From contig CAVUSJ010000010.1 of NCBI GenBank assembly GCA_963744105.1, positions 23,878 through 87,877 on the forward strand: DNA of 64,000 bases. Direction: 5' to 3'. Both the position numbers and the translations under genes were made by a program. Positions 4,655-18,229 of the stretch are shown one piece after another. The DNA is from an uncultured Solirubrobacterales bacterium. GTDB lineage: Bacteria; Actinomycetota; Thermoleophilia; Solirubrobacterales; 70-9. Position 1 is the first letter of the stretch; the number at the start of each line of letters is the position of its first letter. The notes under the pieces were generated by a model that ran no database searches, had not been told where the DNA came from, and was given only the letters and a program-made list of their open reading frames with translations.

Positions 4655-5986
4655 TCAACCGCGAACGGCCCGCAGCTGCGGGCCGTTCGTCTGCTCGGGC
4701 GCGACCTCGGCGAGGTCGTCGGCGAGCGCCTCGACGACCAGCGGGTCGAACCGCTTGCCCGCGTTGCGGCGCAGCTCGGCGAGGGCCTCGTCCTCGGTGA
4801 GCTGCCGCTGATCCGGGCGCTTCGCGGTGAGGACGACGTACTCGACGCAGACGGCGAGGATGCGAGAGCCGAGCGGGATCCGGTCGCCGGCCAGGCCGTC
4901 GGGATAGCCGCTGCCGTCGTAGTTCTCGTGGCCCGAGCGGACCAGCGTCGCGACCGGAGCGAGCGCGGGGGCGGAGGCAATGATCTCCGCCCCGGCGCCG
5001 GGGAGGTCGCGCAGGAGGATGGACTCGTCGGCCGGCAGGTGGCTCTGGCTCTCGAGGGCGGCGTCGGGGACGGAGAGCATGCCGACGTGCTGGAGGCGGG
5101 CGGCATAGACGAGGTCGTCGAGCTGCTCCCGGCTCAGGCCGAGCGAGCGACCGAGCGACTGAACGTGGAACGACACGGCGCGGAGATGCGGGCCCATCTC
5201 GGGATGCCGCTTGTTGAGGATGGCGAGAAGGGTGTCGTGGGCCTGGCTCTTCGCCGACTCGCGCTGGCGCCGGCGGTCGGCGGCCAGACGGCGGCCGGCG
5301 ATCTGGAGCGCCTTCTCCGCGTCGGTGGCGTCATCGGGGAGGGTGACGACGCCGTGGGCCCGGCCCAGCACGGCCTCCGCTCCGGCCCCATCGTCGTCGT
5401 CCGAAAGGAAGATGGCCATCGCGATCTCGCTCGGGTCGCGATCGTAGGCGGGGACGAGGGCGCAGAACTGGCCTCCGTCGACGCGGTAGGCGCGCCCCTC
5501 GAGGCCGCGGGCCACAGCGGTGAACCGGCGAGCGAAGGCGCGGAGCAGCTTGTCGCTCGCCCTGAAGCCGAGCCGGTCGCGATAGTCGGTGACGCCCTCG
5601 AGCTCGAGCAGAACCAGGACCTGCGACTCGTCGGAGTCCTTGAGGACCTGGGTCAGGTCGTGGCTGAGCTGGATCCGGTTCGCGATCCCGGTGACGGCGT
5701 CGATGCGGGCACGGCGATGGTTGTTCTGGACCAGCCAGGTGAAGACGGCGCCGAGGAGCGCAAGGCCGAGCCAGAAGACCAGATCGGTGACCTTGCGCTG
5801 GACGTGGTTGTAGATCAGGAGCGTCGCGGCGAGGCTGGCGAAGAGGGCGGGCCCGGCGACGGACCACTCACGCTCGAACGCGCGGATCTTCCTCCAGGCG
5901 CGGCGCATGCGGGACGGCCGCTGGGGAGAGGGCCGGTAGGCGCGCCGCGTCCGCGCCGAGGCTTTCCCAATCGTGTGGGCTTCCAT
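4655..5986 (-). CDS. membrane-anchored GGDEF-like plus HD-GYP-like signalling protein (both signature motifs degenerate)
   Basis: ORF 4655..6289. Start preferred at 'MEAHTIG' (5986). Two hydrophobic segments. GGDEF-domain text 'IDAVTGIANR...YRVDGGQFCALV' has GGQF in place of GGDEF. HD-GYP-domain text 'AARLQHVGML...GSGYPDGL' has QH in place of HD but retains GYP. Confidence 0.7.
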   Translation of the reverse strand: MEAHTIGKASARTRRAYRPSPQRPSRMRRAWRKIRAFEREWSVAGPALFASLAATLLIYNHVQRKVTDLVFWLGLALLGAVFTWLVQNNHRRARIDAVTGIANRIQLSHDLTQVLKDSDESQVLVLLELEGVTDYRDRLGFRASDKLLRAFARRFTAVARGLEGRAYRVDGGQFCALVPAYDRDPSEIAMAIFLSDDDDGAGAEAVLGRAHGVVTLPDDATDAEKALQIAGRRLAADRRRQRESAKSQAHDTLLAILNKRHPEMGPHLRAVSFHVQSLGRSLGLSREQLDDLVYAARLQHVGMLSVPDAALESQSHLPADESILLRDLPGAGAEIIASAPALAPVATLVRSGHENYDGSGYPDGLAGDRIPLGSRILAVCVEYVVLTAKRPDQRQLTEDEALAELRRNAGKRFDPLVVEALADDLAEVAPEQTNGPQLRAVRG

Positions 5987-6246
5987 TGGTCTAGTATCGG
6001 CCGGGCATTTGGCCAAGGCGGCCAATCTGGACGTTTGATCCATCGCCACGCCTGGCAGCACCTGGCTGCCCCTACCGCAATCCGCAGCCGGCGCTTCTCG
6101 CACACAGCGGGGATCGGCACTGTTCCCACGGCCCAGTTGCTTCCAAGGCTCACGCTGTTTGCGCTGTGGTCTTTGAAGCGGAGCGGTTGACGTGGTCGCA
6201 GCGGCAAGGGAGAATCGGGTCGCCAACAGCACGGAAGGAGACCGCT

Positions 6247-6849
6247 GTGTCCTGGAGCCTGAAGGGGAGCTACTTCGAGACCTGCTCATGTGACCTCATG
6301 TGCCCGTGCAACATGTCTTTCGACCACGGCGCGACCTACGACTACTGCCGGGTCACCCTCGTCTTCAACATCAAAGAGGGTGAGATCGAGGGCACGGACG
6401 TCAGCGGCCTCAGCGTTGCGGCGATCGCGGACACTCCGAAGGTCATGACCGAGGGCAATTGGCGCCTGGGCATGTTCATCGACGACCAGGCAAGCGACGA
6501 GCAAATGGAGAAGCTCACCGCCGTCTTCGGGGGCCAGAAAGGGGGTCCGATGGAGGCGATCACTCCCCTCGTTGGCGAGATCCTCGGCGCCGAGCGGGCG
6601 TCATTCGAGGTGGTCGAGGAGGGGCTGCGCCACAGCGTCAAGATCGGTGACGCGATCGACTTTGAGATCGAGGACATCGTTCCCTTCGGCGTCGAGACCG
6701 GGGAGCCCGTGCGGCTCGTCGGCGTGTTCCATCCGGCCTCGTCGGAGTTCAACGCCGCTGAAGCGAAGCGCTCGAAGATCAGCGCCTTCGGCATCGAGTA
6801 CGAGGGGAAGACCGGGATATCGGCGTCCGAGTTCGCCTGGGCCGCCTGA
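6247..6849 (+). CDS. DUF1326 family protein
   Basis: GTG 6247 preceded by GGAAGGAG. N-terminus 'VSWSLKGSYFETCSCDLMCPCN' is the family's characteristic C-x-C-x3-C-x-C cluster. Ends 3 nt from the convergent DUF2182 gene. Confidence 0.75.
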   Translation: MSWSLKGSYFETCSCDLMCPCNMSFDHGATYDYCRVTLVFNIKEGEIEGTDVSGLSVAAIADTPKVMTEGNWRLGMFIDDQASDEQMEKLTAVFGGQKGGPMEAITPLVGEILGAERASFEVVEEGLRHSVKIGDAIDFEIEDIVPFGVETGEPVRLVGVFHPASSEFNAAEAKRSKISAFGIEYEGKTGISASEFAWAA

Positions 6850-6852
6850 AGG

Positions 6853-7773
6853 CTAGGGCGCGGGCATCCCCTTCTCGTTCCCGTTCATCCCGCCCTGGGA
6901 TGGCATCTTCTGATCGCTCATTGATCCGCCGCTTGAGGAGTCGTGCATGTCCATCGAGTCCATCGCCCGCGCCGCCGCGGGTGAGTTCGGCAGGGTGAGT
7001 CCCGGCACCTTGTCGGGGGCAAAGGCCACCATCAAGCCGAGCACGGCTAACAGAATCGCGACGGAGCGATTGGCCACCGCCTTCCAGGGCAAGAGCTTCT
7101 CGAGTGCGATCAGGGCGGCGATCAGGACCATCCAGCCGATGCTCATCACGCCAAGGGCGAAGAGCGCCGCCATCAGGCCCCAGCAGCAGCCGACGCACCA
7201 GCCCCCGTGCTCCATGCCCATCCGAAGCGCGCCGATCCGGCCCGGGCGCCAATGCATGAGCACGAACGTCAGCGGGCTCCGGCAGTGCCGGAGGCAGACG
7301 TCCTTGAGCGGCGTGAGCTGGTAGACCGCGGCCGCAACGATGACGCCGCCGGCCACGTACGGGCCATCGCTGTCCCAGGCCATGAAGCCGAGGTCGAGCG
7401 ACCGCGCGATCTCGAAGATCGCGTAGGCGAACAGGCCCGCCGCCGCCCAGGTGAGCAGGTAGCCGCCGACGAATGTCGCGGTGGCGCCGGCCTGGGTCGG
7501 CTGGCCCTTCCGCCGCTTTCCCTCTTCGATGCGCGCGTACATGACCACCATCGGCGCGATCGAGGGAAACATCATCGCTGCCATCATCACGACCCAGGCA
7601 GTGAGCCAGAAGCCGAGACCGCCAAGATCCGTGCCCGGGCCGGCGTCCATGCCAGCCATTCGGTCGCCCGTCAGCGCCCAGGCGACGGCGGCGAGAAGCA
7701 GCAACCCGAAGATGAGGCCGAGCTGAACCGCGCTCGGGAGGGGTGGTGCTCGGCGGAGCGTCGTCGACTCCAT
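6853..7773 (-). CDS. DUF2182 family predicted metal-binding integral membrane protein with Met/His-rich C-terminal tail
   Basis: Motifs 'WVVMMAAMMFPSIAPMVVMY', 'LKDVCLRHCRSPL' and 'GMEHGGWCVGCCWGLM...ALEK' match my memory of DUF2182. Tail 'MDSMDMHDSSSGGSMSDQKMPSQGGMNGNEKGMP'. Confidence 0.8.
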   Translation of the reverse strand: MESTTLRRAPPLPSAVQLGLIFGLLLLAAVAWALTGDRMAGMDAGPGTDLGGLGFWLTAWVVMMAAMMFPSIAPMVVMYARIEEGKRRKGQPTQAGATATFVGGYLLTWAAAGLFAYAIFEIARSLDLGFMAWDSDGPYVAGGVIVAAAVYQLTPLKDVCLRHCRSPLTFVLMHWRPGRIGALRMGMEHGGWCVGCCWGLMAALFALGVMSIGWMVLIAALIALEKLLPWKAVANRSVAILLAVLGLMVAFAPDKVPGLTLPNSPAAARAMDSMDMHDSSSGGSMSDQKMPSQGGMNGNEKGMPAP

Positions 7774-7818
7774 CGGCCTCGACTCTAGTTGCCCAAGAAG
7801 TACGCTGGCGAATCAAGC

Positions 7819-8424
7819 ATGACGTGGGGAATCCGAGGCACCTACTTCGAATCGTGCAACTGCGAGGCGATTTGTCCCTGCCGGCGCATCGATGGTTTCG
7901 CTGGGGGTCGTTCGACACACGGTGTGTGCTTGGGGGTTCTGTCGTGGCGGATTGAGGAGGGCGCCGCCAACAGCACCGATCTTTCCGGGCTCTCGGTCGC
8001 GCTGGCCTCCCGCTACAGCGATGATGAGGAGGGCTCGCCTTGGACGTGGATCCTCTACCTCGACGCGCGGGGGTCCGTCGAGCAGCGTGCCGCGCTCGAG
8101 AGCATCTTCACCGGTCGTCTCGGGGGCGATGTGATGGACCATTTCCCATGGGCCTGGAAGGACAGCGAGCTTGTCGCGGTGCGACCTGTCGAGATCGAGG
8201 TCAACCACACACGGCGACGGCAGCGACTGCGAATCCGCGATCTCGTAAGCGTCCGCATCCGTGGCCGTTACGACGGCGACGAGACCGTCACCTGCGTCAT
8301 CCCGGGCCATCAGCGGGCCGGCGAAGAACTTGTCGCGAACGAGCTCGTGGTCGAGGACGACCCGCTCTCCTTCAGCTATCGCGGTGTGTGCGGGTACGGC
8401 TCAACCTTCGACTACGCGGGGTAA
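7819..8424 (+). CDS. DUF1326 family protein (second copy)
   Basis: 'MTWGIRGTYFESCNCEAICPCR' parallels the first copy. The ORF track starts at 7789 (TTG); ATG 7819 fits the family N-terminus. Divergent from the DUF2182 gene across 45 bp. Confidence 0.75.
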   Translation: MTWGIRGTYFESCNCEAICPCRRIDGFAGGRSTHGVCLGVLSWRIEEGAANSTDLSGLSVALASRYSDDEEGSPWTWILYLDARGSVEQRAALESIFTGRLGGDVMDHFPWAWKDSELVAVRPVEIEVNHTRRRQRLRIRDLVSVRIRGRYDGDETVTCVIPGHQRAGEELVANELVVEDDPLSFSYRGVCGYGSTFDYAG

Positions 8425-8445
8425 TCGCATTCATCGAGAGCCGGA

Positions 8446-8727
8446 TTACCTCCCCCGCGGTGGCCGCCCTTCCCGCAGGAGGAGAACGGAACCGCCCCCG
8501 TGCGCCAGGGCGCAGCGCCAGTGGCCGGGCACCTTGCCCTGGCCGTCGTAGGCCTTCGCCACCTCGATCGCCCGGGAGCAGGAGACGCGCCGCAGCGCGA
8601 ACACCCTGGCGAGCGGATAGATGGAGGTCGAGTCGAGGGTGCCGCAGTCGGTCGCCGTGTAGCGCGCCCGCTCAGTCCTGACCACCGCCGAGTGCTTGTC
8701 GGAGCCTCCTCCGAAGGAGGGGAACAT
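8446..8727 (-). CDS. small Cys/His-containing hypothetical protein downstream of csoR
   Basis: 93 codons. Hand-counted third-position GC is about 90%, as in genuine genes here. 3 Cys and 3 His. Starts 46 nt after the csoR stop on the same strand. No family recognised. Confidence 0.5.
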   Translation of the reverse strand: MFPSFGGGSDKHSAVVRTERARYTATDCGTLDSTSIYPLARVFALRRVSCSRAIEVAKAYDGQGKVPGHWRCALAHGGGSVLLLREGRPPRGR

Positions 8728-8773
8728 CGAGACAACCGCGAGGGCACCCGAGGGGAAGCGCCTAAACGCCGCG

Positions 8774-9058
8774 CTAGGAGCTGACCAGCCGGCCGACCGC
8801 GCCCATCAGCTCCTGCACCTGCTCCTCGGTCGCCCCCTCGCCGCCGCGCATGCAATGGCGGACGTGATCATCGACGAGGCCGAGCGCGATCTTGTTGAGA
8901 GCGGCCTGGGCCGCCTCGATCTGGGTGAGGACGTCGATGCAGTAGCGGTCCTCCTCGACCATCCGCTTGACGCCCCCGACCTGCCCCTCGACGCGGGCCA
9001 GCCGCTTGAGGATGTCGTCCTTCGATGCCTTGTAGCCGGGTGTCTTCTTTGCCGTCAT
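8774..9058 (-). CDS. csoR: CsoR family copper-sensing transcriptional repressor
   Basis: 'RLARVEGQVGGVKRMVEEDRYCIDVLTQIEAAQAALNKIALGLVDDHVRHC' has the C-x24-H-x3-C spacing of the CsoR Cu(I) ligands. The track start at 9070 would overlap the operator, so ATG 9058 is preferred. Confidence 0.85.
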   Translation of the reverse strand: MTAKKTPGYKASKDDILKRLARVEGQVGGVKRMVEEDRYCIDVLTQIEAAQAALNKIALGLVDDHVRHCMRGGEGATEEQVQELMGAVGRLVSS

Positions 9059-9068
9059 GTTGTGCAGC

Positions 9069-9086
9069 ATACCCCTACTGGGGTAT
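9069..9086. promoter_or_regulatory. CsoR-type operator, ATACCCC-TACT-GGGGTAT
   Basis: Perfect 7-bp inverted repeat with a 4-bp spacer. It sits in the short divergent region between csoR and the YHS-permease operon (ATG 9098). It resembles GC-rich CsoR boxes described in actinobacteria and Bacillus. Confidence 0.7.
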
Positions 9087-9097
9087 AGTCGTCAAAC

Positions 9098-10366
9098 ATG
9101 GCGGATGTGATCTCGACCATCGGCGAGGGCTTCAGGCAGTCCTTCCTGATGGCCTACGAGGTCTGGTGGGCCCTCGTCCTGGGCTTTGCGATCTCGGCGA
9201 TCGTCCAGTCCTGGGTCCCGCGGGAGAAGGTCGAGTCGGCTCTCTCGGGCAGCGGCTTCGGCCCACTGGCCAAGGCCACCGGCCTCGGCGCCGCCTCCTC
9301 ATCCTGTTCCTACGCGGCGATCGCGATCGCGAAGTCGCTCTTCCAGAAGGGCGCCTCCGCCGTGACCGCGCTCGCCTTCCAGTTTGCGTCCACCAACCTC
9401 GTATGGGAGCTGGGCCTGGTCATCTGGATCCTGCTCGGCTGGCAGTTCACCCTCGCCGAGTTCGTCGGCGGGATCGTGCTGATCGTCCTGATGGCGATCC
9501 TTCTCCGCCGCTTCGTCTCGCCCAAGCTCGAGGAGCGCGCCCGCGAGCACGCGCAGCAGGCCCAGGTTGACCACCAGCACCACGCGGTCGGCGAGCGGAT
9601 GAGTTGGCGCGAGAGGTTCACCTCGGCCCGGGCCTGGTCCGACGTCGCCCACAACTTCCGCGCCGACTGGCAGATGCTTTGGAAGGAGATCTCGATCGGC
9701 TTCCTGCTCGCCGGCTTCATCGGCCTGCTCGGCGACAACTTCTTCAACGCCCTCTTCATCGAGGACGCCCCGCCGGTCCTGAGGACGCTCGAGAACGTGA
9801 TCGTCGGGCCGATCATCGCGGTACTCAGCTTCGTCTGCTCGGTCGGCAACGCGCCACTCGCCGCCGTGCTCTGGTCCGGAGGGATCGGCTTCGCCGGCGT
9901 GATCGCGTTCATCTTCGCCGACCTGATCGTGCTGCCGATCGTCGCCGCCTACATCAAGTACTACGGGCGGGAGTTCGCGCTCCGGATCACGGCGCTGATG
10001 TTCGTAACCATCGTGCTGTCGGCGCTGCTGGTGGACCTCGTCTTCGGCGCAGTCGGCCTGATCCCCGACACCCGGCCGTCGCGATCGGACATCTTCGGCT
10101 CGATCCAGCTCGACTACAAGCTCGTGCTCAACGTCCTCGGGCTGATCATCTTCGCGGCGCTCTTCTACCTGACGGCCCGGCGCGGGGCGACCGATCCGAA
10201 CTGCGGGATGAAGGTCGATCGTTCCAAGGCGCTGCAGGCCGAACACGGCGGACGCACCTACTACTTCTGCTCCGAGCACTGCCGCTCGGAGTTCCTGGCT
10301 GACCCCGACTGCCGTGTGGGCAAGGCCCCGCCCGCGGACGAGCACGCGATGGGCCATGCGCACTGA
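9098..10366 (+). CDS. ArsP/UPF0718-type permease with C-terminal YHS metal-binding domain
   Basis: Polytopic. 'GLGAASSSCSYAAIAIAKSL' is permease-family-like. C-terminus 'DPNCGMKVDRSKALQAEHGGRTYYFCSEHCRSEFLADP' is a YHS/TRASH-type motif. Confidence 0.8.
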   Translation: MADVISTIGEGFRQSFLMAYEVWWALVLGFAISAIVQSWVPREKVESALSGSGFGPLAKATGLGAASSSCSYAAIAIAKSLFQKGASAVTALAFQFASTNLVWELGLVIWILLGWQFTLAEFVGGIVLIVLMAILLRRFVSPKLEERAREHAQQAQVDHQHHAVGERMSWRERFTSARAWSDVAHNFRADWQMLWKEISIGFLLAGFIGLLGDNFFNALFIEDAPPVLRTLENVIVGPIIAVLSFVCSVGNAPLAAVLWSGGIGFAGVIAFIFADLIVLPIVAAYIKYYGREFALRITALMFVTIVLSALLVDLVFGAVGLIPDTRPSRSDIFGSIQLDYKLVLNVLGLIIFAALFYLTARRGATDPNCGMKVDRSKALQAEHGGRTYYFCSEHCRSEFLADPDCRVGKAPPADEHAMGHAH

Positions 10367-10565
10367 TCGGGGCCACGACGCGACGCGGTTTCCCAAGCCC
10401 GATCACGGCTTCACGCCGCACGGGCAGTTCAGCGGTCGCTCACTCGAGGAGCTGGTCAAGGATCCGGAGGGCCGGGCGCAGCTCGCCGCGCACGTCCCGC
10501 AGCAGGGCAGGGGACGCCAGAAGCTCCGCTCGCCTGGCTCTCCTGGGCTCTTCAGGAAGAGGTGA
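10356..10565 (+). CDS. small hypothetical protein, translationally coupled on both sides
   Basis: 69 codons. ATG overlaps the permease end by 11 nt, and its stop overlaps the next GTG (GTGA). Hand-counted GC3 is about 84%. No family recognised. Confidence 0.4.
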   Translation: MRTDRGHDATRFPKPDHGFTPHGQFSGRSLEELVKDPEGRAQLAAHVPQQGRGRQKLRSPGSPGLFRKR

Positions 10566-11041
10566 CTCTCGACAACGTCAACGAGGTGGCGGCGCCGGAG
10601 CAGAACCTCAACGGGCTTGCGGTCGCCGCGACGACGCACTGCCTGACGGGATGCGCAATCGGCGAGGTGGCCGGGATGGCGATCGCGACCGCGCTCGGAT
10701 GGGGAAACGTGGCACAGATGGCTCTGGCGATCGGGCTCGCCTACTTCTTCGGCTTCGGCCTGACCGCGCTGCCCCTGATCCGCGCTCGGCTCGCCCCGCG
10801 CACGATCGTCTCGACGGCGCTCGCCGCCGACACGGTCTCGATCACGATCATGGAGGTGATCGACAACCTCACCGTCATCCTGATTCCCAGTGCGCTCGGC
10901 GCCGGTCTCGGTGACCCTCTCTTCTACGGCAGCATCGCCGCCGGCTTCGCGATCGCCTATCCCTTCGCCTTCCTGGCCAACCGCTACCTGATCGCGCGCG
11001 GCCGCGGTCACGCCGTCGTCCACCAGCACCATGCCCACTGA
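10562..11041 (+). CDS. DUF4396 family membrane protein
   Basis: 'THCLTGCAIGEVAGMAIATALGW' (H-C-x2-G-C-x2-G-E) followed by hydrophobic helices. His-rich end 'HAVVHQHHAH'. Confidence 0.75.
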   Translation: MTLDNVNEVAAPEQNLNGLAVAATTHCLTGCAIGEVAGMAIATALGWGNVAQMALAIGLAYFFGFGLTALPLIRARLAPRTIVSTALAADTVSITIMEVIDNLTVILIPSALGAGLGDPLFYGSIAAGFAIAYPFAFLANRYLIARGRGHAVVHQHHAH

Positions 11042-11684
11042 GCCGCGCGGATATCTGCCGGCGCTCCGTTTCCCGGCCCTCACGCGAATCTACGACCCGG
11101 TGGTCGGGCTGACCACCAGGGAGCGGAGGTTCAAGGAGCTGCTCGTCGAGCAGGCCGCACCGTCTCCCGGCCAGCGCATCCTCGACCTCGGCTGCGGCAC
11201 CGGCACTCTCGCGATCCAGGTCAAGCAGCGGGAGCCACGGGCTGAGGTGGTCGGCCTGGACGCCGACCCCGAGATGCTGGCTCAGGCCCGGGCCAAGGCG
11301 GAGCGAGCAGACGTCGAGCTCCGGCTCGCCGAGGGGATGTCCGACGAGCTTCCCTTCGAGGACGCGAGGTTCGACCGGGTGCTGTCGACCCTCTTCTTCC
11401 ACCACCTCGACCCGGAGCCGAAGCGCCGGACCGCTCGCGAGATCGCCCGCGTGCTGAAGAAGGGAGGCGAGCTGCACGTCGCAGACTGGGGCCGACCGGC
11501 CGACCCGGTGATGGCCGCGGCGTTTCTCTCGATCAGGCTGCTCGACGGGTTCGAGAACACCGCCGACAACGTCAACGGCGAGCTGCCGCGGATCTTCGAG
11601 GAGGCCGGGCTCGAGAACGCGGAGCAGACGGATCGGCTCCGCACCGTCCTCGGGACGATGGCGCTCTTCCGGGCCGACCGCTGA
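11031..11684 (+). CDS. class I SAM-dependent methyltransferase
   Basis: Motif I 'ILDLGCGTGTLA', 'VVGLDADPEML', 'FDRVLSTLFFHHL', 'LKKGGELHV'. 11-nt overlap with the upstream gene. Confidence 0.8.
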   Translation: MPTEPRGYLPALRFPALTRIYDPVVGLTTRERRFKELLVEQAAPSPGQRILDLGCGTGTLAIQVKQREPRAEVVGLDADPEMLAQARAKAERADVELRLAEGMSDELPFEDARFDRVLSTLFFHHLDPEPKRRTAREIARVLKKGGELHVADWGRPADPVMAAAFLSIRLLDGFENTADNVNGELPRIFEEAGLENAEQTDRLRTVLGTMALFRADR

Positions 11685-11736
11685 TTCGGTGCTGAGCACG
11701 GATGCCAGCGGGGACGCCTCGGCCTAGCGTCCGTCC

Positions 11737-12003
11737 ATGAACCTGGCTCTGCTGATTGCGGACACCTGGGGAATGCACGACAGCGACATCGGAACTGGAT
11801 GGTGGATTGTGATGATGCTCGGGATGGTTCTCTTCTGGGGCCTGGTCATTCTCGGAGTGATCTGGCTTGTTCGTGAGGTCGGCGGCCCGCGCCGTCACGG
11901 GGCCGCGCCGGACGATCCTCTGGCGATCCTCGACCGGCGCCTCGCCGAGGGCGACATCACGGTGAAGGAGTACCAGCAGCGGCGCAAGATCCTCACCGGT
12001 TGA
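11737..12003 (+). CDS. SHOCT domain-containing small membrane protein
   Basis: TM segment 'GWWIVMMLGMVLFWGLVILGVIWLV', then 'LAILDRRLAEGDITVKEYQQRRKIL' (SHOCT-like). Confidence 0.7.
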   Translation: MNLALLIADTWGMHDSDIGTGWWIVMMLGMVLFWGLVILGVIWLVREVGGPRRHGAAPDDPLAILDRRLAEGDITVKEYQQRRKILTG

Positions 12004-12848
12004 ACACGGCCGAGTCGAGCACCTTCGTCTTCGCCGACCTTGCCGGCTTCACGGCCCTGACCGAAGCGCACGGGGATCAGGAGGCGATCGACATCGCCGT
12101 CCGGTTCGCCGATCGCGTCAGGGAGCTGCTTCCGGACTACGGGGCCGAGGAGGTGAAGTCGATCGGCGACGAGCTGATGATTCGCGTCGAGGATCCCGTC
12201 GGTGCGGTCAACCTCGGCATTCGGATCGTCGACGAGCTGGCCTTTCACGGCTCACCACCGGTCAGGGTGGGCATGCACTCCGGGTCGGCCACCCGGCTGG
12301 GCGGCGATTGGTACGGCGGCACCGTCAACCTCGCATCGCGCGTCGTGGACGCTGCGCGGCCAGGAGAGGTGCTGATCACGGCGGAGACGCGGCGACAGGT
12401 GCAGGGTCGTGACGGGATCGAGATAGAGGAGCGGGGCACACGCCGTTTCAAGCACGTCGTCGAGCCGATCGCGGTCTATGAGGCGCTTGCCGCCGGCGGC
12501 CGGACCAGACGCCTCGAGATCGACCCCGTCTGCCGGATGGCCGTGGACCCGAGCCGCGCGGCCTCGAGCAGGCGCCGCCTCGGCCTCTCGTACTACTTCT
12601 GCTCCGCGGATTGCCGGGAGAAGTTCGATGCAGGCCCGAAGGGCTACATCGCCACGACTGCCGGGGCGCGGGCCGCGCGCATGGGCTTCCTGATCAACCT
12701 GTCCGCCTTCGTGATCGTCGGCGCCGTGCACCTGATCTCCTGGGCGGCTCGCGGCTTCACGGCGGATTCGCCGGGAATGTTCGCCCTCTTCTCCGTCTGG
12801 GCCGCGGCGCTGGTCTTCCACTACCGCACGGTCCGCAGGGTCCTCTGA
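12000..12848 (+). CDS. class III adenylate/guanylate cyclase catalytic domain fused to YHS domain and C-terminal 2TM domain
   Basis: TTG start overlapping the upstream stop (TTGA). 'FVFADLAGFT', 'VKSIGDELM', 'GDWYGGTVNLASRV' carry the metal-binding Asp pair plus Lys/Asp/Asn/Arg. Then 'IDPVCRMAVDPSR...LSYYFCSADCREKF' (YHS) and two hydrophobic helices. Confidence 0.8.
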   Translation: MNTAESSTFVFADLAGFTALTEAHGDQEAIDIAVRFADRVRELLPDYGAEEVKSIGDELMIRVEDPVGAVNLGIRIVDELAFHGSPPVRVGMHSGSATRLGGDWYGGTVNLASRVVDAARPGEVLITAETRRQVQGRDGIEIEERGTRRFKHVVEPIAVYEALAAGGRTRRLEIDPVCRMAVDPSRAASSRRRLGLSYYFCSADCREKFDAGPKGYIATTAGARAARMGFLINLSAFVIVGAVHLISWAARGFTADSPGMFALFSVWAAALVFHYRTVRRVL

Positions 12849-12872
12849 TCGAGAGGGTGCAGGTATGCAGAA

Positions 12873-12928
12873 CGGCGCCCCCGAGCGCCGAGCCCGAACC
12901 GGGACGGGCCCGGCGCTCCGAGGCGCCG
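12873..12928. terminator. GC-rich imperfect stem-loop between convergent genes
   Basis: CGGCGCC...GGCGCCG outer arms, with nested CCGGG-ACGGG-CCCGG and two GGCGC-n6-GCGCC hairpins. Lies between the stops at 12848 (+) and 12961 (-). No clear U-tract. Confidence 0.35.
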
Positions 12929-12960
12929 CGCTAAGCCATTACCCGCAGTGTGGATTCTTA

Positions 12961-13575
12961 CTACTCGAGTGAGAAGGGCGGGTACTTGTCGGTGACGAGG
13001 ATCGCCATGTAGGCGACCACCCGCAGGTACCAGCGCTGAATGCCCACGACGAAGTCGAAGGCCCCTCGTGGATAGCGGCCCGTGAACAGGATCGCGAACC
13101 AGGCGTAGATCACCGCGAAGAAGCCCGCGATCCCCAGGAAGAACAGCACTATGTAGTGGGGGATCGCCAGCAGCCACTTGATCAGCGGCATGCCGCGGGA
13201 CAACTCGGCCTCGACATCCGGGTACTCGATCTCCAGCTGGACCCACTGCTGCTCGTCGGTCGACGGATACTCGTCGTTCATCAGCACGAAATACGTATGG
13301 ACCCGCGCTCCGAAGCGCAGGAGCTCGCGGTTCCAGTCGAACCACCAGCGCGGGTACTTCTTGCGGAACAGGATCATCAGCAGTGGACCGCCGAACAGGA
13401 TCCCGCCGGCCGTGATGTAGAGCGTCTCGCCTCGGCCGCCCCAGGTGACATGCGCGACGGTGCCGAGAACGATCGCGATGGGAATCACCCAGAAGATTCG
13501 GAGTGCGCTCGACAGCCGGTCGAGATCGCGGTCCGGATAGTCCACCGAATAGGTCAGGGGATAGCTCTCATCCAT
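12961..13575 (-). CDS. DUF4389 family membrane protein
   Basis: 'LRIFWVIPIAIVLG', 'KKYPRWWFDWN', 'LLAIPHYIVLFFL...FAILFTGRYPRGAFDF' match my memory of DUF4389. Confidence 0.7.
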   Translation of the reverse strand: MDESYPLTYSVDYPDRDLDRLSSALRIFWVIPIAIVLGTVAHVTWGGRGETLYITAGGILFGGPLLMILFRKKYPRWWFDWNRELLRFGARVHTYFVLMNDEYPSTDEQQWVQLEIEYPDVEAELSRGMPLIKWLLAIPHYIVLFFLGIAGFFAVIYAWFAILFTGRYPRGAFDFVVGIQRWYLRVVAYMAILVTDKYPPFSLE

Positions 13576-13660
13576 GTCTCTCTCCCTCGTTGGTTTGCCG
13601 TCCCGCCGAAAACCGTACGCCGGGGGTCGGATCCCGTCGCAGGATCGCCATCATCTGGAC

Positions 13661-14515
13661 ATGGCCCATCGGATCACCTGGCTGGACGTCTTCGCCGAGC
13701 GCCCGCTCGCGGGGAACGGGCTGGCGGTGGTCGACGACGCGGACGGCGTCAGCGACGAGACCATGCTCGCCCTGGCGCAGGAGACCCGGCTCTCCGAGAC
13801 GGCTTTCGTTCAGTCCGCGACGGCGGACGGCGCCGACTACCGCAACCGGATCTGGGACCTGCACGAGGAGCTTCCCTTCGCGGGCCACCCGTCGCTTGGG
13901 ACCGCCGTGGCGGTCGCGCGCTGGCGCGGGATGGAGGAGGCGAGCTTCGTGCAGGAGACCGGCGCCGGGCTGCAGCCGATCGACGTCCGGAAGCCGAACG
14001 GGCGCTGGGAAGCGTCGATGCTGCAGAACGAGGCGGAGTTCGGCCAGGAGCTGGAGCGCGACGCCGTGATGGCGGCTGTCGGCCTGCGTGCCGAGGACGC
14101 CCACCCCGAGCTGCCTCCTCAGGTCGTCTCGACCGGGATGCCCCACGTGATGGCGCCCGTCGCCGAGCACCAGGCGCTCGCCCGCGCGCTGCCTGACTAC
14201 GCGACGATCTTCGAGCTCTCGGAGCCGCACGGCTCGATCGTGATCTACCTGGCCTGGCTCGATCCGGACGGGGAGACGGTGAGGGCCCGCTCCTTCACGC
14301 GCACCCCGGAGATGGGCGAGGACCCGGCGACGGGCTCAGCCGCCGGGCCGCTCGGCGCGTACCTCGATCAGCGCACCGGGCGCGAGCGGCTCCGGATCCG
14401 GCAGGGCGAGGAGATGGGGCGCCCGAGCGTGCTCGAGGTCGAGATGACAGACGGCCGGCCGCGGGTCTCCGGCAGCGTCATCCCGGTGATCGACGGCGAG
14501 GTCAGCCTGCCGTAG
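13661..14515 (+). CDS. PhzF family isomerase-like protein
   Basis: Start at 'MAHRITWLDVFAERPLAGNGLAVV'. 'ETAFVQ', 'PFAGHPSLGTA', 'EDPATGSAAGPLGAYL'. Confidence 0.8.
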   Translation: MAHRITWLDVFAERPLAGNGLAVVDDADGVSDETMLALAQETRLSETAFVQSATADGADYRNRIWDLHEELPFAGHPSLGTAVAVARWRGMEEASFVQETGAGLQPIDVRKPNGRWEASMLQNEAEFGQELERDAVMAAVGLRAEDAHPELPPQVVSTGMPHVMAPVAEHQALARALPDYATIFELSEPHGSIVIYLAWLDPDGETVRARSFTRTPEMGEDPATGSAAGPLGAYLDQRTGRERLRIRQGEEMGRPSVLEVEMTDGRPRVSGSVIPVIDGEVSLP

Positions 14516-14966
14516 CGCGGCTGCCGCGCTTGCGTCCCAGGGCGCGCAGCCTGTCTCGGACCCGCCGGCGCTTCGTCTCCAGCTCGCGGCGCAGCGCCTC
14601 GATTTCGTCACGGCGGTGCCGGACGAGCTCGAGCTGGCTCTCGATGTGCCCGAGCGACTGCTCCAGCACCTCGCGCTGGCGGACCGGGTCCTCGATTCCC
14701 TCGTGCCACTCGCGCCGCAGCGCGGCGCGCGCGGTCTCGGCGGCCGCCAGCTCGCCGAGCTCCTCGAGCGAGACACCGAGCAGCTCGCGAAGGCGCAGCA
14801 GCTCCTGGAGCCGCTCGAGGTCGTCCTCGCCGTAGGTGCGGTGCGCGCCCGGCTCGCGCGCATGCTCGGAGGGGAGGAGCCCGATCTCCTCGTAGTAGCG
14901 AATCGTCCTGGGCGTCGTGCCCGTGAGCTTCGCCATATCCCCGATGCGCAGTCGCCGCTCGGTCAT
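14502..14966 (-). CDS. MerR family transcriptional regulator
   Basis: 'LRIGDMAKLTGTTPRTIRYYEEIGLL' HTH, followed by a long charged coiled-coil-like C-terminus without Cys. 4-nt overlap with the upstream MFS gene. Confidence 0.85.
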   Translation of the reverse strand: MTERRLRIGDMAKLTGTTPRTIRYYEEIGLLPSEHAREPGAHRTYGEDDLERLQELLRLRELLGVSLEELGELAAAETARAALRREWHEGIEDPVRQREVLEQSLGHIESQLELVRHRRDEIEALRRELETKRRRVRDRLRALGRKRGSRATAG

Positions 14967-16477
14967 GCCGCGATCCGTTCGGAAGCCGGGAGAGCATCGG
15001 CGACCGGATGCCTGACGTGGCGCGGCCGCAGGAGCGACACGCCGGCGCCGATCAGCGAGGTGGCCGCCAGCACCCAGAGGGCGGTGTGCATATTCTGGAT
15101 GAAGGCCTCGAGCTGGACGGTCGGCAGACCGGAGGCGAGCCCGGAGAAGATCTTGAAGAGCACCTCCTTCGGCACACCGGAGGTCACCATCGCGATCACG
15201 AAGGCGATCGAGAGGACGGCGCCGGTGTTCTGAAGCATCATCCGGGCACCCGCCGCGATGCCACGGCGATGCGGCGGCACGGTCCCCATCATCGCCGCGG
15301 TGTTCGGCGAGTTGAACATCCCGGAGCCGATACCGACCAAGCCGAGCCAGAGCGCGGTCTCCCAATAGGGGCTGCTCTGCTCCAGGGTCGTCATCGCCGC
15401 CAGGGCGACCGCGGTGACCAGCATGCCGAGGGCCGCGAGAGTGCGGGAGCCGCGGCGATCGGCCCAGATCCCCGCCAGCGGCGATGCGATCAGCATCCCG
15501 ATCGCCATCGGGGAGAGCTTGATCCCGGCGGTGATCGGGTCGTCGCCCTGGACGCCCTGGAAGTAGAAGACGAAGATGAAGAGCAGGGCGAAGCGGGAGA
15601 GCCCGTTGATGAAGGCGGCGCCGGTGGCGGCGGCGAACATCCGGTTCTGGAAGATGGTCAGGTCGAGCATCGGAGCCGTCGCCCGCCGCTCGATCAACAC
15701 GAAGAGCGGGAGCAGCACCACGGCGACGGCCAGCGAGACGATCACGATCGGCTCGGTCCAGCCGGAGATGCCGCCCTTCGAGACGCCGTAGACGAGCCCG
15801 GTCAGCCCGACCAGGAAGGTGCTCGTGCCGAGCAGGTCGAGACCTCGCTGCGAGTCCGGCTTCGCGAGCTCGTGGAGGATCAGCCCGCCCCAGACAGCCC
15901 CGGCAACGCCCAGCGGGATGTTGAACCAGAAGACCCACTGCCATCCGATCGAGACCAGCGCGCCGCCGAGAACCGGGCCGATCACCAGCCCGATAGCGGC
16001 GACCATCGTGTTGGTGCCCATCGCGACGCCGAGCTGCTCCTTCGGGAACGCGTCCGTGACCAGCGCGGCGGCATTGGCGAACAGGAAGGCGGCGCCGACG
16101 CCCTGCACGATCCGCCAGAGGATCAACTCGGTGCCGTTGCCGGCGAAGCCCGCGCCGAACGACGCGAGCGTGAAGAGGACGAAGCCGCCGACGTAGGCCT
16201 TCTTGCGGCCGAAGAGGTCGGAGAGCCGCCCCGCCGTCAGCACCAGGACGGTCGAGGAGATCATGTACGCGAGGATCACCCAGACGAGCTGGAGCAGGCT
16301 GGTGCCTAGCGAGCGCTCCAGGTCGGGCAGGGCGATGATCAGCGTGCCCGAGTTGATCGTCGCGAGGAGCATCCCGAGGCTCGTGCAGCTGAGGGCCCAC
16401 CACTTGTAGTTGCGATGTCCGGCGTGAACTCCCGGCCTGAACCTGCTCCTCCGCTCGCCCTCAATTCTTACGTTCAC
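14963..16477 (-). CDS. MFS transporter, DHA2 (EmrB/QacA-like, 14-TMS) family
   Basis: 'GRLSDLFGRKKAY', 'RIVQGVGAAFLFANAAALVTDAFP', many TM segments. The only in-frame canonical start upstream of TM1 is GTG 16477; the rest of the track ORF up to 17035 is antisense noise. Confidence 0.75.
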   Translation of the reverse strand: MNVRIEGERRSRFRPGVHAGHRNYKWWALSCTSLGMLLATINSGTLIIALPDLERSLGTSLLQLVWVILAYMISSTVLVLTAGRLSDLFGRKKAYVGGFVLFTLASFGAGFAGNGTELILWRIVQGVGAAFLFANAAALVTDAFPKEQLGVAMGTNTMVAAIGLVIGPVLGGALVSIGWQWVFWFNIPLGVAGAVWGGLILHELAKPDSQRGLDLLGTSTFLVGLTGLVYGVSKGGISGWTEPIVIVSLAVAVVLLPLFVLIERRATAPMLDLTIFQNRMFAAATGAAFINGLSRFALLFIFVFYFQGVQGDDPITAGIKLSPMAIGMLIASPLAGIWADRRGSRTLAALGMLVTAVALAAMTTLEQSSPYWETALWLGLVGIGSGMFNSPNTAAMMGTVPPHRRGIAAGARMMLQNTGAVLSIAFVIAMVTSGVPKEVLFKIFSGLASGLPTVQLEAFIQNMHTALWVLAATSLIGAGVSLLRPRHVRHPVADALPASERIAA

Positions 16478-16482
16478 GTAAG
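16467..16482. promoter_or_regulatory. palindrome CTTACGT-TC-ACGTAAG in divergent promoter region (candidate MerR-family operator)
   Basis: Perfect 7-bp arms with a 2-bp spacer. Immediately followed by the AT-rich palindrome TAATATTA (16486-16493). That element can supply -10 hexamers 7 nt from GTG 16477 (minus) and from ATG 16499 (plus). Confidence 0.4.
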
Positions 16483-16498
16483 GATTAATATTAGCGCC

Positions 16499-16882
16499 AT
16501 GGATTCGACTCTCTGGCAGGCCGTCCTCTTCCTGCACCTGGTCGCGATGGCGTTCTTCCTCGGCGGCCAGCTGTTCCTCGCCGCGGCAGTCGTCCCGGCT
16601 CTGCGCGGGGAGGAGAGCCGTGAGCAGCTCCGCGCCGTGGCACGCCGCTTCGGCTGGGGGTCGCTGGTGGCGCTCGGCGTCCTGATCGCGACGGGTGCGG
16701 CGATGGCAAGCCATCTCGACCTCTGGAGCGACGGGACCCTGCACGTGAAGCTCACCCTGGTCGCGGTCGCCCTGGTCCTCGTCGGGGTGCATCTCCGCTA
16801 CTCGCGGGCCCATCTGCTGCAGGCGGCGATCTTCCTCGTCACCCTCGCGATCGTCTGGGAGGCCGTACGGTTGGCGTCCTAG
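16499..16882 (+). CDS. small integral membrane protein (four predicted helices; CopD/DUF4149-like, tentative)
   Basis: Start at 'MDSTLWQAVLFLHLVAMAFFLGGQLF'. Four hydrophobic stretches. Its stop directly abuts the next ATG. Confidence 0.55.
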   Translation: MDSTLWQAVLFLHLVAMAFFLGGQLFLAAAVVPALRGEESREQLRAVARRFGWGSLVALGVLIATGAAMASHLDLWSDGTLHVKLTLVAVALVLVGVHLRYSRAHLLQAAIFLVTLAIVWEAVRLAS

Positions 16883-18229
16883 ATGGACCGTGGCCGCCTC
16901 CCTTCCCTGATCCAGGCAGAGCGCGAGCGATTCGCGAGCGACCATCCGCGCTCCCAGGCCCTCTTCGAGGAAGCCAGCGGGAACCTGCTCGCGGGCGTCC
17001 CGATGAGCTGGATGACTAAGTGGCCGGGCGGCCACCCGATCTTCGCCGCCGAGGCCTCAGGCGCCCGGATCACAGATGTCGACGGGAACACCTACGTCGA
17101 CCTCTGCCTCGGCGACACGGGCGCGATGGCGGGCCATGCCCCCGAGGCGACCGCCGAGGCCGTCGCCGAGCGCTATCGGAAGGGCGCCACCCTGATGCTG
17201 CCCACCGAGGACACGCTCCGAGCCGCCGGGCTGCTCGAGACCCGCTTCGGCCTGCCGAAGTGGCAGTTCACCCTCTCGGCGACGGATGCGAACCGCTTCG
17301 CCATCCGGCTCGCCCGGGAGATCACGGGCAGGAGCCGGATTCTCGTGTTCAGCTACTGCTACCACGGCACCGTCGACGAGACGTTCATCGTCGTCGGCCC
17401 GGACGGGCCAGTGTCGCGCGACGGCAACGTCGGCCCGCCGGTCGACCCGACCGAGACGACTGCGGTGGTCGAGTTCAACGACACCGAGGCGCTCGAGCGC
17501 ATGCTCCGGGAGGAGGAGATCGCCTGCGTCCTCACCGAGCCGGCGCTGACGAACATCGGCATCGTCCTGCCGCAGCCCGGGTTTCACGACGCGCTGCGCG
17601 AGCTCACCCGCGAGACGGGGACCCTCCTCGCGATCGACGAGACGCACACCTTCAGCGCCGGGCCCGGCGGCTACACGGCGGCATACGGGCTGGAGCCGGA
17701 TCTGCTGACCATCGGGAAGGCGATCGCCGGAGGGGTCCCGGCGGGCGCCTTCGGCATGAGCCAGGAGGTCGCCGACCGGATTCTCGAGCAGGCCGGCGCC
17801 GACTACGAGGACACCGGTGGCGTCGGGGGCACCCTGGCGGGCAACGCGCTCTCGGCGGCCGCGATCTGCGCCACTCTCGACCAGGTGCTGACAGCAGATG
17901 CCTTCGAGCGGATGATCGAGCTGGCCGGACGGTTCACCGAAGGCGTCCAGCAAGTGATCGACGAACGCGAGCTTCCCTGGCACGTCGTCCAGCTCGGCGC
18001 CCGGGCGGAGTACGGCTTCCTCCCGGAGCCGCCGACCAGCGGCGGGCAGGCGGCGGCCGGCTCCGATCCGGAGCTGGAGGAGTACCTCCACCTCTTCCTC
18101 CTCAACCGTGGGGTGCTGATCACGCCGTTCCACAACATGGCGCTGATGTCGCCGGCCACCGAGCCCGAGGACGTCGATCGCCACACCGAGGCGTTCGACG
18201 AGGCCTGCGGGCTGCTCGCCGCGAGTTGA
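16883..18229 (+). CDS. class III (GSA-aminomutase-like) PLP-dependent aminotransferase
   Basis: 'DLCLGDTGAMAGH', 'AIDETHTFSAGPGG', PLP-lysine context 'LLTIGKAIAGGVPAGAFG'. Confidence 0.85.
   Translation: MDRGRLPSLIQAERERFASDHPRSQALFEEASGNLLAGVPMSWMTKWPGGHPIFAAEASGARITDVDGNTYVDLCLGDTGAMAGHAPEATAEAVAERYRKGATLMLPTEDTLRAAGLLETRFGLPKWQFTLSATDANRFAIRLAREITGRSRILVFSYCYHGTVDETFIVVGPDGPVSRDGNVGPPVDPTETTAVVEFNDTEALERMLREEEIACVLTEPALTNIGIVLPQPGFHDALRELTRETGTLLAIDETHTFSAGPGGYTAAYGLEPDLLTIGKAIAGGVPAGAFGMSQEVADRILEQAGADYEDTGGVGGTLAGNALSAAAICATLDQVLTADAFERMIELAGRFTEGVQQVIDERELPWHVVQLGARAEYGFLPEPPTSGGQAAAGSDPELEEYLHLFLLNRGVLITPFHNMALMSPATEPEDVDRHTEAFDEACGLLAAS

Follow-up and report, generated by a model that had tools for sequence, protein, structure and literature searches.

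Introduction

The described systems closest to the locus reported here are the csoR-copZA and cso operons of Bacillus subtilis, Mycobacterium tuberculosis and Streptomyces lividans, and the RicR regulon of M. tuberculosis (ricR, lpqS, mymT, socAB, Rv2963 and mmcO), which holds a metallothionein, a multicopper oxidase and small open reading frames (ORFs) besides a putative permease (PMC3944814). We analyzed a 64-kb stretch of DNA from an uncultured soil bacterium of the Solirubrobacterales, referred to as the window, in which a gene for a CsoR-family repressor lies back to back with five genes on the opposite strand. These encode a permease with a YHS domain, a DUF4396 protein, an S-adenosylmethionine (SAM)-dependent methyltransferase, a small SHOCT membrane protein and an adenylate cyclase with a second YHS domain. 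A copper-stress locus under a Cu(I)-sensing CsoR, with cyclic AMP (cAMP) as its output, is probably the best explanation of the locus as a whole, and the comparative evidence supports the copper reading well. The CsoR linkage of a copper-sensor cyclase is new, whereas the regulatory logic itself is that of CsoR and RicR.

With the csoR-copZA and cso operons the locus has in common the repressor family, the ligand set and, apart from an extra base in the window, the operator type. It differs from them in lacking a P1B-ATPase and an HMA chaperone and in placing a secondary permease first in the operon, although some related loci (L068, L089) combine both. The RicR regulon resembles it in that an autoregulating CsoR paralogue controls targets other than copZA, including a putative permease; in the window, however, the targets stand in one operon rather than at scattered loci, and metallothionein, lpqS and socAB are missing. 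A preliminary description of the window, made from the letters alone, stated that CsoR regulons normally consist of copZA, which the RicR regulon shows to be too narrow (PMC3944814).

Parts of the locus also have described relatives. The YHS cyclase of Mycobacterium phlei (MpAC) has been purified; 1-10 µM Cu2+ switches it on with Mg2+. The YHS domain is required for this activation, which Zn, Fe, Cr, Co and Ni do not bring about (Linder 2015, PMC4626032). That paper is silent on genomic context and leaves the physiological role "open to speculation". For the permease, zinc-stress fitness data from Shewanella singled out an ArsP/DUF318-related gene as one for heavy-metal efflux (10.1101/072470), and the C-S-C motif of SO_0444-type transporters has been described (10.1101/2022.07.06.499078); the NCBIfam name of this ArsP family is SO_0444 Cu/Zn efflux. 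DUF4396 is named in the literature searched only within a metal-resistance island. The module had been presented as built almost entirely from uncharacterized families, which is overstated both for the cyclase, purified and Cu2+-activated in its M. phlei form (PMC4626032), and for the permease, whose ArsP relatives have metal-stress fitness phenotypes (10.1101/072470; 10.1101/2022.07.06.499078). The further statement that no described system matches holds for the assembled system, which is absent from the literature searched, but not for its parts and logic, which are partly known. In the same literature we found no link of CsoR to a YHS cyclase and no account of a permease-DUF4396-methyltransferase core.

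The CsoR repressor and its operator

The main features, with domain calls by Pfam and NCBIfam profiles, are as follows.

8774-9058, minus strand: csoR, CsoR-family repressor of 94 amino acids (aa), predicted Cu(I) type (Pfam PF02583)
9069-9086: CsoR-type operator, an exact inverted repeat
9066-9095, minus strand: predicted csoR promoter, with -35 TTGACG (9095-9090), an 18-nucleotide (nt) spacer and -10 TATGCT (9071-9066)
9084-9089, plus strand: predicted operon -10, TATAGT, overlapping the right operator arm
9098-12848, plus strand: same-strand run of five genes, divergent from csoR
9098-10366, plus strand: permease of the ArsP_1 family, 422 aa, bearing a cytosolic YHS domain at its C-terminus (nt 10190-10309)
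10356-10565, plus strand: frameshifted N-terminal extension of the DUF4396 gene, formerly read as a second ORF
10562-11041, plus strand: DUF4396 core, 159 aa, four predicted membrane helices (Pfam PF14342)
11031-11684, plus strand: class I SAM-dependent methyltransferase, 217 aa (Methyltransf_25, 93 bits)
11737-12003, plus strand: SHOCT protein, 88 aa, single-pass membrane protein with C-terminal SHOCT domain
12000-12848, plus strand: class III (IIIc-like) adenylate cyclase, 282 aa (Guanylate_cyc 53.5 bits, YHS 36.2 bits), made up of a catalytic domain (nt 12009-12488), a YHS domain (12519-12650) and a two-helix membrane hairpin (12660-12842)

The repressor scores 99.3 bits against the Pfam model Trns_repr_metal (gathering score 22.8), and its closest solved relatives are the CsoR proteins of S. 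lividans (4adz, 5e-21) and Geobacillus (4m1p). Its Tyr39-Cys40 and His65-x3-Cys69 align to the YC and H-x3-C of both structures, in which the counterparts of Cys40, His65 and Cys69 make up the x-C-H-C set of Cu(I) ligands. The protein is thus predicted to belong to the Cu(I)-sensing subclass, and Cu(I), named as the probable signal in the preliminary description, is indeed the likely one given the alignment of this ligand set with S. lividans CsoR. The FrmR and RcnR models are weaker NCBIfam matches. With 95.7 bits the window protein stays well below the RicR equivalog cutoff of 175 (NF052430) and is therefore no RicR orthologue.

Gene callers on near-identical contigs place the start of csoR at the ATG at 9058, and not at an alternative ATG upstream at 9070; on L001, L002 and L086 (loci are designated by L numbers) they yield 94 aa. 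With this start the divergent intergenic region is 39 nt long (9059-9097), and the operator, ATACCCCTACTGGGGTAT, is roughly centered within it. The two 7-nt arms (ATACCCC and GGGGTAT) are 100% complementary and enclose a 4-nt spacer (TACT), which bears out the earlier claim of a perfect CsoR-type repeat between csoR and the gene run. There is no second match to it in the 64-kb window, even with three mismatches allowed. At the same site eight close relatives (L001, L002, L004, L005, L006, L013, L015 and L020) carry ATACCCCTATGGGGTAT, that is TACCC-N5-GGGTA, the pattern that the primers of PMC3944814 show for the box of the ricR promoter. The window operator reads TACCC-N6-GGGTA, with one extra base, the C at 9078, and so departs from the RicR boxes and from these relatives alike. 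A scan with the window's own spacing, N4 between the arms, misses almost every relative, which makes the window spacing the odd one.

Both predicted promoters overlap the operator, and the outer TAT of either arm opens a predicted -10 hexamer. On the operon side TATAGT ends 8 nt before the permease ATG, a proximity that suggests a leaderless mRNA, and close relatives retain the string GGGGTATAGTCGTCAA at this -10. On the csoR side TATGCT overlaps the left arm and stops 7 nt short of the start codon at 9058; this promoter is the sole sigma-70-like site in 8300-13100 (0.2 expected), and its spacer is lengthened from 17 to 18 nt by the extra C. Judged by these distances, the csoR and operon mRNAs are probably both leaderless, and we infer that a single bound CsoR would block both back-to-back promoters. 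A search of Rfam returned no RNA family within 8000-13600.

Conservation across loci

A genome scan seeded on the cyclase collected 80 loci, nearly all of them in metagenome-assembled genomes of Thermoleophilia and other actinobacteria; the nearest public relatives of the window, which has a G+C content of 69%, are Solirubrobacterales genomes of this kind. The full cluster recurs in L004, L005, L006 and L020. In L007, L012 and L015, csoR is divergent from permease, DUF4396, in some cases SHOCT, and cyclase, the methyltransferase and/or SHOCT being absent, and in L084-L088, at the same syntenic site, it is divergent from permease, DUF4396 and methyltransferase with neither SHOCT nor cyclase. 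The trio in L084-L088 argues that permease, DUF4396 and methyltransferase form the core and that the SHOCT-cyclase pair is an add-on. The conservation check proposed in the preliminary description thus finds the order kept in four loci and reduced or rearranged in many others.

Counting that of the window, YHS cyclase and CsoR genes occur together in at least seven arrangements (at least six besides it). They include csoR-cyclase operons with the genes 14-60 nt apart, in some cases with a divergent permease (L052/53, L027, L060, L069, L024 and L054), a csoR divergent from permease-copA-cyclase (L068), and a csoR divergent from the cyclase with copA and then a cupredoxin gene on its own side (L089/90). 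We counted 37 exact TACCC-N5-GGGTA boxes, spread over 29 of the 80 cyclase loci, where dinucleotide shuffles predict 0.03. Moreover, the members of the window operon have their own CsoR boxes elsewhere: DUF4396 in L012 and L017, the methyltransferase in L079, SHOCT in L032 and L019, and the cyclase in L017, L079 and L014.

Within 5 kb of the cyclase a copper gene is present in 49 of the 80 loci (CsoR in 17, permease in 18, SHOCT in 16, CopA in 12, DUF4396 in 9, CopY/BlaI in 8 and multicopper oxidase in 7). The window itself had been said to lack copA and copZ, which holds: Pfam finds no E1-E2 ATPase among its large ORFs, and the DKTGT and M-x-C-x-x-C (HMA-type) motifs are absent from its six frames. 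The absence of copA is limited to the window locus, since the related loci L068, L089/L090, L024 and L053 have this gene in the same cluster.

In more distant loci the cyclase occurs in a short form that ends at the YHS domain. A protein search with the short-form cyclase of Haloechinothrix matched metagenome proteins throughout and no named mycobacterial homologue. Directly 5' of short-form cyclases, in L065 (8045-9901) and six other loci, we observed multicopper oxidases with two heavy-metal-binding zinc-ribbon inserts of the HMBD type.

The gene run and its products

The five plus-strand genes at 9098-12848 all have a third-position G+C of 0.80-0.94, and their junctions are close: an 11-nt overlap between the permease gene and the following ORF (10356-10366, read from the sequence), a GTGA overlap with the DUF4396 core (10562-10565), a second 11-nt overlap with the methyltransferase gene (11031-11041), a gap before SHOCT, and a TTGA overlap between SHOCT and cyclase (12000-12003). 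The overlaps are compatible with a single transcription and translation unit. Together with the repeat at 9069-9086 the junctions bear out the description of the run as one tightly packed unit behind a CsoR-type box, with two corrections: the gap counts 52 nt rather than 53, and the genes number five rather than six, because 10356-10565 is the frameshifted N-terminal extension of DUF4396. The two 11-nt overlaps are identical in sequence, ATGC[G/C]CACTGA.

Pfam searches, proposed at the outset as a check, uphold the CsoR, ArsP_1, YHS, DUF4396, methyltransferase and cyclase assignments, including a YHS domain in both permease (45.7 bits) and cyclase (36.2 bits). For SHOCT (PF09851) the outcome is divided, as the window protein reaches 26.3 bits against a gathering score of 27 and its homologue in L009 reaches 31.7. 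The 2TM model suggested for the tail of the cyclase scores 12.8 bits only and is unsupported, though a helical hairpin is predicted there.

The cyclase has the catalytic residues of class III, namely two metal-binding Asp, the adenine-specifying Lys and Asp and the transition-state Asn and Arg. These residues (D13, K53, D57, D103, N110 and R114) do not vary across 20 homologues, and they correspond, in the same order, to D222, K261, D265, D312, N319 and R323 of Rv1264. D175, C178, C201 and C205 of the YHS domain, which exceeds its gathering score of 30.3, are equally invariant in the 20 homologues. An AlphaFold model (predicted local distance difference test, pLDDT, 89.5) comprises the catalytic domain, a small YHS module and helices at 221-250 and 258-281. 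The top Foldseek matches are Ma1120, Rv1264 and Rv1900c, with TM-scores to target of up to 0.94 (0.92-0.94 for Ma1120). MpAC is built in the same way, from a catalytic domain, a short linker and a YHS domain whose Asp and three Cys have been proposed to bind the metal; both enzymes possess the full canonical class III set, and the nearest folds among solved structures are those of mycobacterial IIIc-type cyclases. The window cyclase differs in its C-terminal membrane hairpin and its length (282 versus 233 aa), and its gene sits in clusters predicted to be under CsoR control, whereas for the MpAC gene the paper describes no genomic setting. By analogy with MpAC, the window cyclase may be activated by copper.

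The permease matches ArsP_1 at 203 bits (gathering score 32.3), and a Protein Data Bank (PDB) sequence search with it gave no match. Two Cys, Cys70 (SSSCSY) and Cys247 (FVCSVGN), are invariant in 15 homologues, one in each half of the protein. Like SO_0444 and SaoE, it is an ArsP_1 multi-pass protein with intramembrane Cys and a link to metal stress, and we regard it as a predicted Cu(I) exporter. It differs from them in its single-Cys sites (SSSCSY has one Cys where SO_0444 and SaoE carry C-S-C), in the added C-terminal YHS domain and in its scores of about 54, which are 53.7 bits against a cutoff of 300 for SO_0444 and 54.3 against 325 for SaoE.

DUF4396 scores 107.2 bits (gathering score 27). 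Its first predicted helix carries H-C-L-T-G-C, conserved acidic and polar side chains lie inside the helices, and the C-terminus is rich in His; the H-C-x2-G-C motif noted earlier is therefore present, and it is conserved, the motif, E35, D89, E97, D100, N101 and the GHAVVH tail being retained down to a 55%-identical paralogue. L012 has two DUF4396 paralogues (2035-2502 and 4945-5406, 55% and 80% identical to that of the window), and the stand-alone copy comes with a near-consensus CsoR box of its own. The ORF at 10356-10565 has no Pfam or NCBIfam match of its own; it aligns to the conserved N-terminus of the long-form DUF4396 of 221-240 aa, which is frequent in relatives. In L002 (98% identical) one extra base fuses it in frame to DUF4396, giving 228 aa (P0121), and this base is missing between 10526 and 10527 in the window and in the independent assembly L001. 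The in-frame fusion and the long form in relatives are the grounds for counting five genes. The 159-aa remainder matches a natural short form of 156-159 aa. A poor AlphaFold model of the long form, with a pLDDT of 52 from a shallow alignment (15 sequences, all at least 78% identical), shows four long helices, and a PDB sequence search found no solved relative of DUF4396.

The methyltransferase follows DUF4396 in L004-6, L020 and L084-L088. Among NCBIfam models CpaM fits it best, at 104.6 bits but below the cutoff of 180, its PDB relatives are generic small-molecule methyltransferases, and the single Cys of the whole protein lies within a GCGTG motif. An identity as ArsM was rejected: the score is 54.7 bits against a cutoff of 263, and a protein with one Cys only lacks the As(III) site that ArsM builds from several Cys. 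Diverse class I SAM methyltransferases also neighbor the YHS cyclase, at distances of up to about 400 nt, in roughly 16 of the 80 loci (among them L010, L013, L019, L021, L028, L036-L038, L042, L049, L074, L079 and L083). They are at most 69% identical to that of the window, many of them below 40%, and this adjacency is far above expectation for so common an enzyme class.

In an alignment of 18 SHOCT homologues an N-terminal D-x-W-x-M-H-x-x-D motif is followed by a Met-rich helix, and the C-terminal motif is conserved in the 18 sequences. A SHOCT gene stands directly 5' of the YHS cyclase in L004, L005, L008, L011, L012, L015, L023, L051 and L064.

Proposed mechanism and alternative explanations

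According to our model, CsoR would bind the GC-rich palindrome that overlaps the -10 elements of the csoR and operon promoters, and Cu(I) bound at Cys40, His65 and Cys69 would release it and free both. The ArsP/SO_0444-superfamily permease with its cytosolic YHS tail would then export Cu(I), DUF4396 may bind or pass Cu(I) by way of its in-membrane H-C-x2-G-C site and His-rich tail, and the SAM methyltransferase would be switched on as the third gene of the conserved core. The add-on pair, the small SHOCT membrane protein and the membrane-anchored YHS cyclase, would be switched on with them. Copper would in this way be read twice, in that CsoR decides the synthesis of the cyclase and the YHS domain its activity, and cAMP would report a sustained excess of cytosolic copper.

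If so, a type of copper-sensor cyclase described in 2015, and until now from in-vitro work only, is placed in a genomic context for the first time, and the repeated cyclase-CsoR clusters offer a testable model in which the cell turns an excess of copper in its cytosol into a cAMP signal. Three unstudied families, namely DUF4396, the small membrane proteins with SHOCT and a single clade of methyltransferases, gain a regulatory context and become candidate copper-handling steps, and the CsoR regulons of soil actinobacteria appear much broader than copZA. A more far-reaching proposal is that Thermoleophilia and related actinobacteria use a CsoR-gated, copper-switched two-key cyclase with a SHOCT partner, together with a CopA-independent permease-DUF4396-methyltransferase detoxification whose methyltransferase chemistry would be new to copper homeostasis; this we put forward tentatively, and consider less likely than not as a whole.

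Several observations weigh against the copper-cAMP model. The organism is uncultured, and its locus is known from sequence alone. The N6 spacing of the operator, if real, could weaken repression, the long form of DUF4396 is frameshifted in the window, and the 52-nt gap before SHOCT could house a separate promoter. The permease fails the SO_0444 and SaoE cutoffs and lacks C-S-C, which makes Cu(I) export an argument from analogy only. About 40% of the YHS-cyclase loci have no recognizable copper gene within 5 kb. By tblastn with the E. coli CRP sequence as the query, no cAMP receptor was found in the window, and two matches were found among the 80 loci. Cu(I) is the form of copper expected in the cytosol, whereas the M. 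phlei enzyme, which has no membrane hairpin, was assayed with Cu2+.

Of the competing explanations the most serious, somewhat short of an even chance, concerns the two indels of the window (at 9078 and at 10526/10527): either they are real, and the strain is deregulated or decaying, or both are errors of long-read assembly, and the actual sequence is the canonical one of the relatives. Over 9059-12848 the window differs from L001 by three substitutions and the C at 9078 only, and the two align over 16.8 kb with 17 gap openings to 75 mismatches, a proportion so rich in indels that assembly error is as likely as a regulatory mutation to account for the extra C. The N5 box of the eight relatives and the intact long-form DUF4396 of L002 point in the same direction. 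On the other hand, the DUF4396 frameshift is common to the independent assembly L001, the operator arms are intact, and what remains of DUF4396 equals the natural short form, so that function need not be lost.

A second possibility, which we think unlikely, is that the SHOCT-cyclase pair is a separate unit that landed downstream and lies outside CsoR control in the window. This would account for the 52-nt gap, for the absence of the pair from the same syntenic site in L084-L088 and for SHOCT-cyclase pairs without a nearby csoR in L008, L011, L023, L051 and L064. However, no promoter- or terminator-like site was found in the gap, and the boxes that SHOCT and cyclase each have elsewhere suggest that CsoR control is the rule for these families, however they are transcribed in the window.

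Less probable still is import in place of export, with permease and DUF4396 routing copper to cuproenzyme assembly in concert with a module that adjoins csoR:

6166-8424: DUF1326 / PpoB2 / DUF1326 module, PpoB2 (6853-7773) on the minus strand and both DUF1326 genes on the plus strand

PpoB2 is a 'copper chaperone' family (PF09948), and its position just upstream, flanked by the two DUF1326 genes, would suit such a role. Mutation of the permease Rv2963 left M. tuberculosis, if anything, a little more resistant to copper (PMC3944814). The module is, however, confined to the window, L001 and L002 and missing in L086-L088, and therefore has the look of a further copper-linked module that was inserted here recently. 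Clusters of the relatives include copA and CDF efflux genes, and derepression of CsoR at Cu(I) excess fits export, not uptake.

CsoR-family members elsewhere sense Ni/Co, formaldehyde or persulfide, the permease belongs to a Pfam family named after the organoarsenical exporter ArsP, and the methyltransferase is a conserved core partner with weak NCBIfam matches to ArsM models; nevertheless, another thiophilic signal (Ag, Cd, Zn, Hg, an organo-metalloid or CstR-like reactive sulfur), with permease and methyltransferase acting as ArsP and ArsM to methylate and then export, is the least probable alternative, because the regulator carries the Cys-His-Cys of Cu(I) CsoRs and is closest to the solved ones, the genes nearby in the various loci encode CopA with an HMA domain, multicopper oxidases and cupredoxins, the characterized YHS cyclase answered copper and not Zn, Fe, Cr, Co or Ni, and the ArsP/ArsM analogy was rejected by Cys count and scores.

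Neighboring genes

Two further features lie on the csoR side of the locus.

8446-8727, minus strand: 93-aa ORF downstream of csoR, with a coding-like third-position G+C of 0.90
4655-6295, minus strand (2905-4233 in L086): GGDEF and HD_5 gene, for cyclic di-GMP turnover

The ORF at 8446-8727 has no Pfam or NCBIfam match; L001 shares it, whereas L002 and the more distant relatives do not. It lies inside the interval originally assigned to the locus; having no family and no conservation beyond L001, it was not counted as part of it. In L086-L088 the GGDEF and HD_5 gene is about 170 nt directly 3' of csoR on the same strand, and a second nucleotide messenger may in these loci be tied to CsoR. Downstream of the DUF4389 and PhzF genes, the window contains a MerR-family regulator and an MFS transporter (14502-17056, minus strand), a pair that is kept in all syntenic relatives and is probably unrelated to the copper operon.

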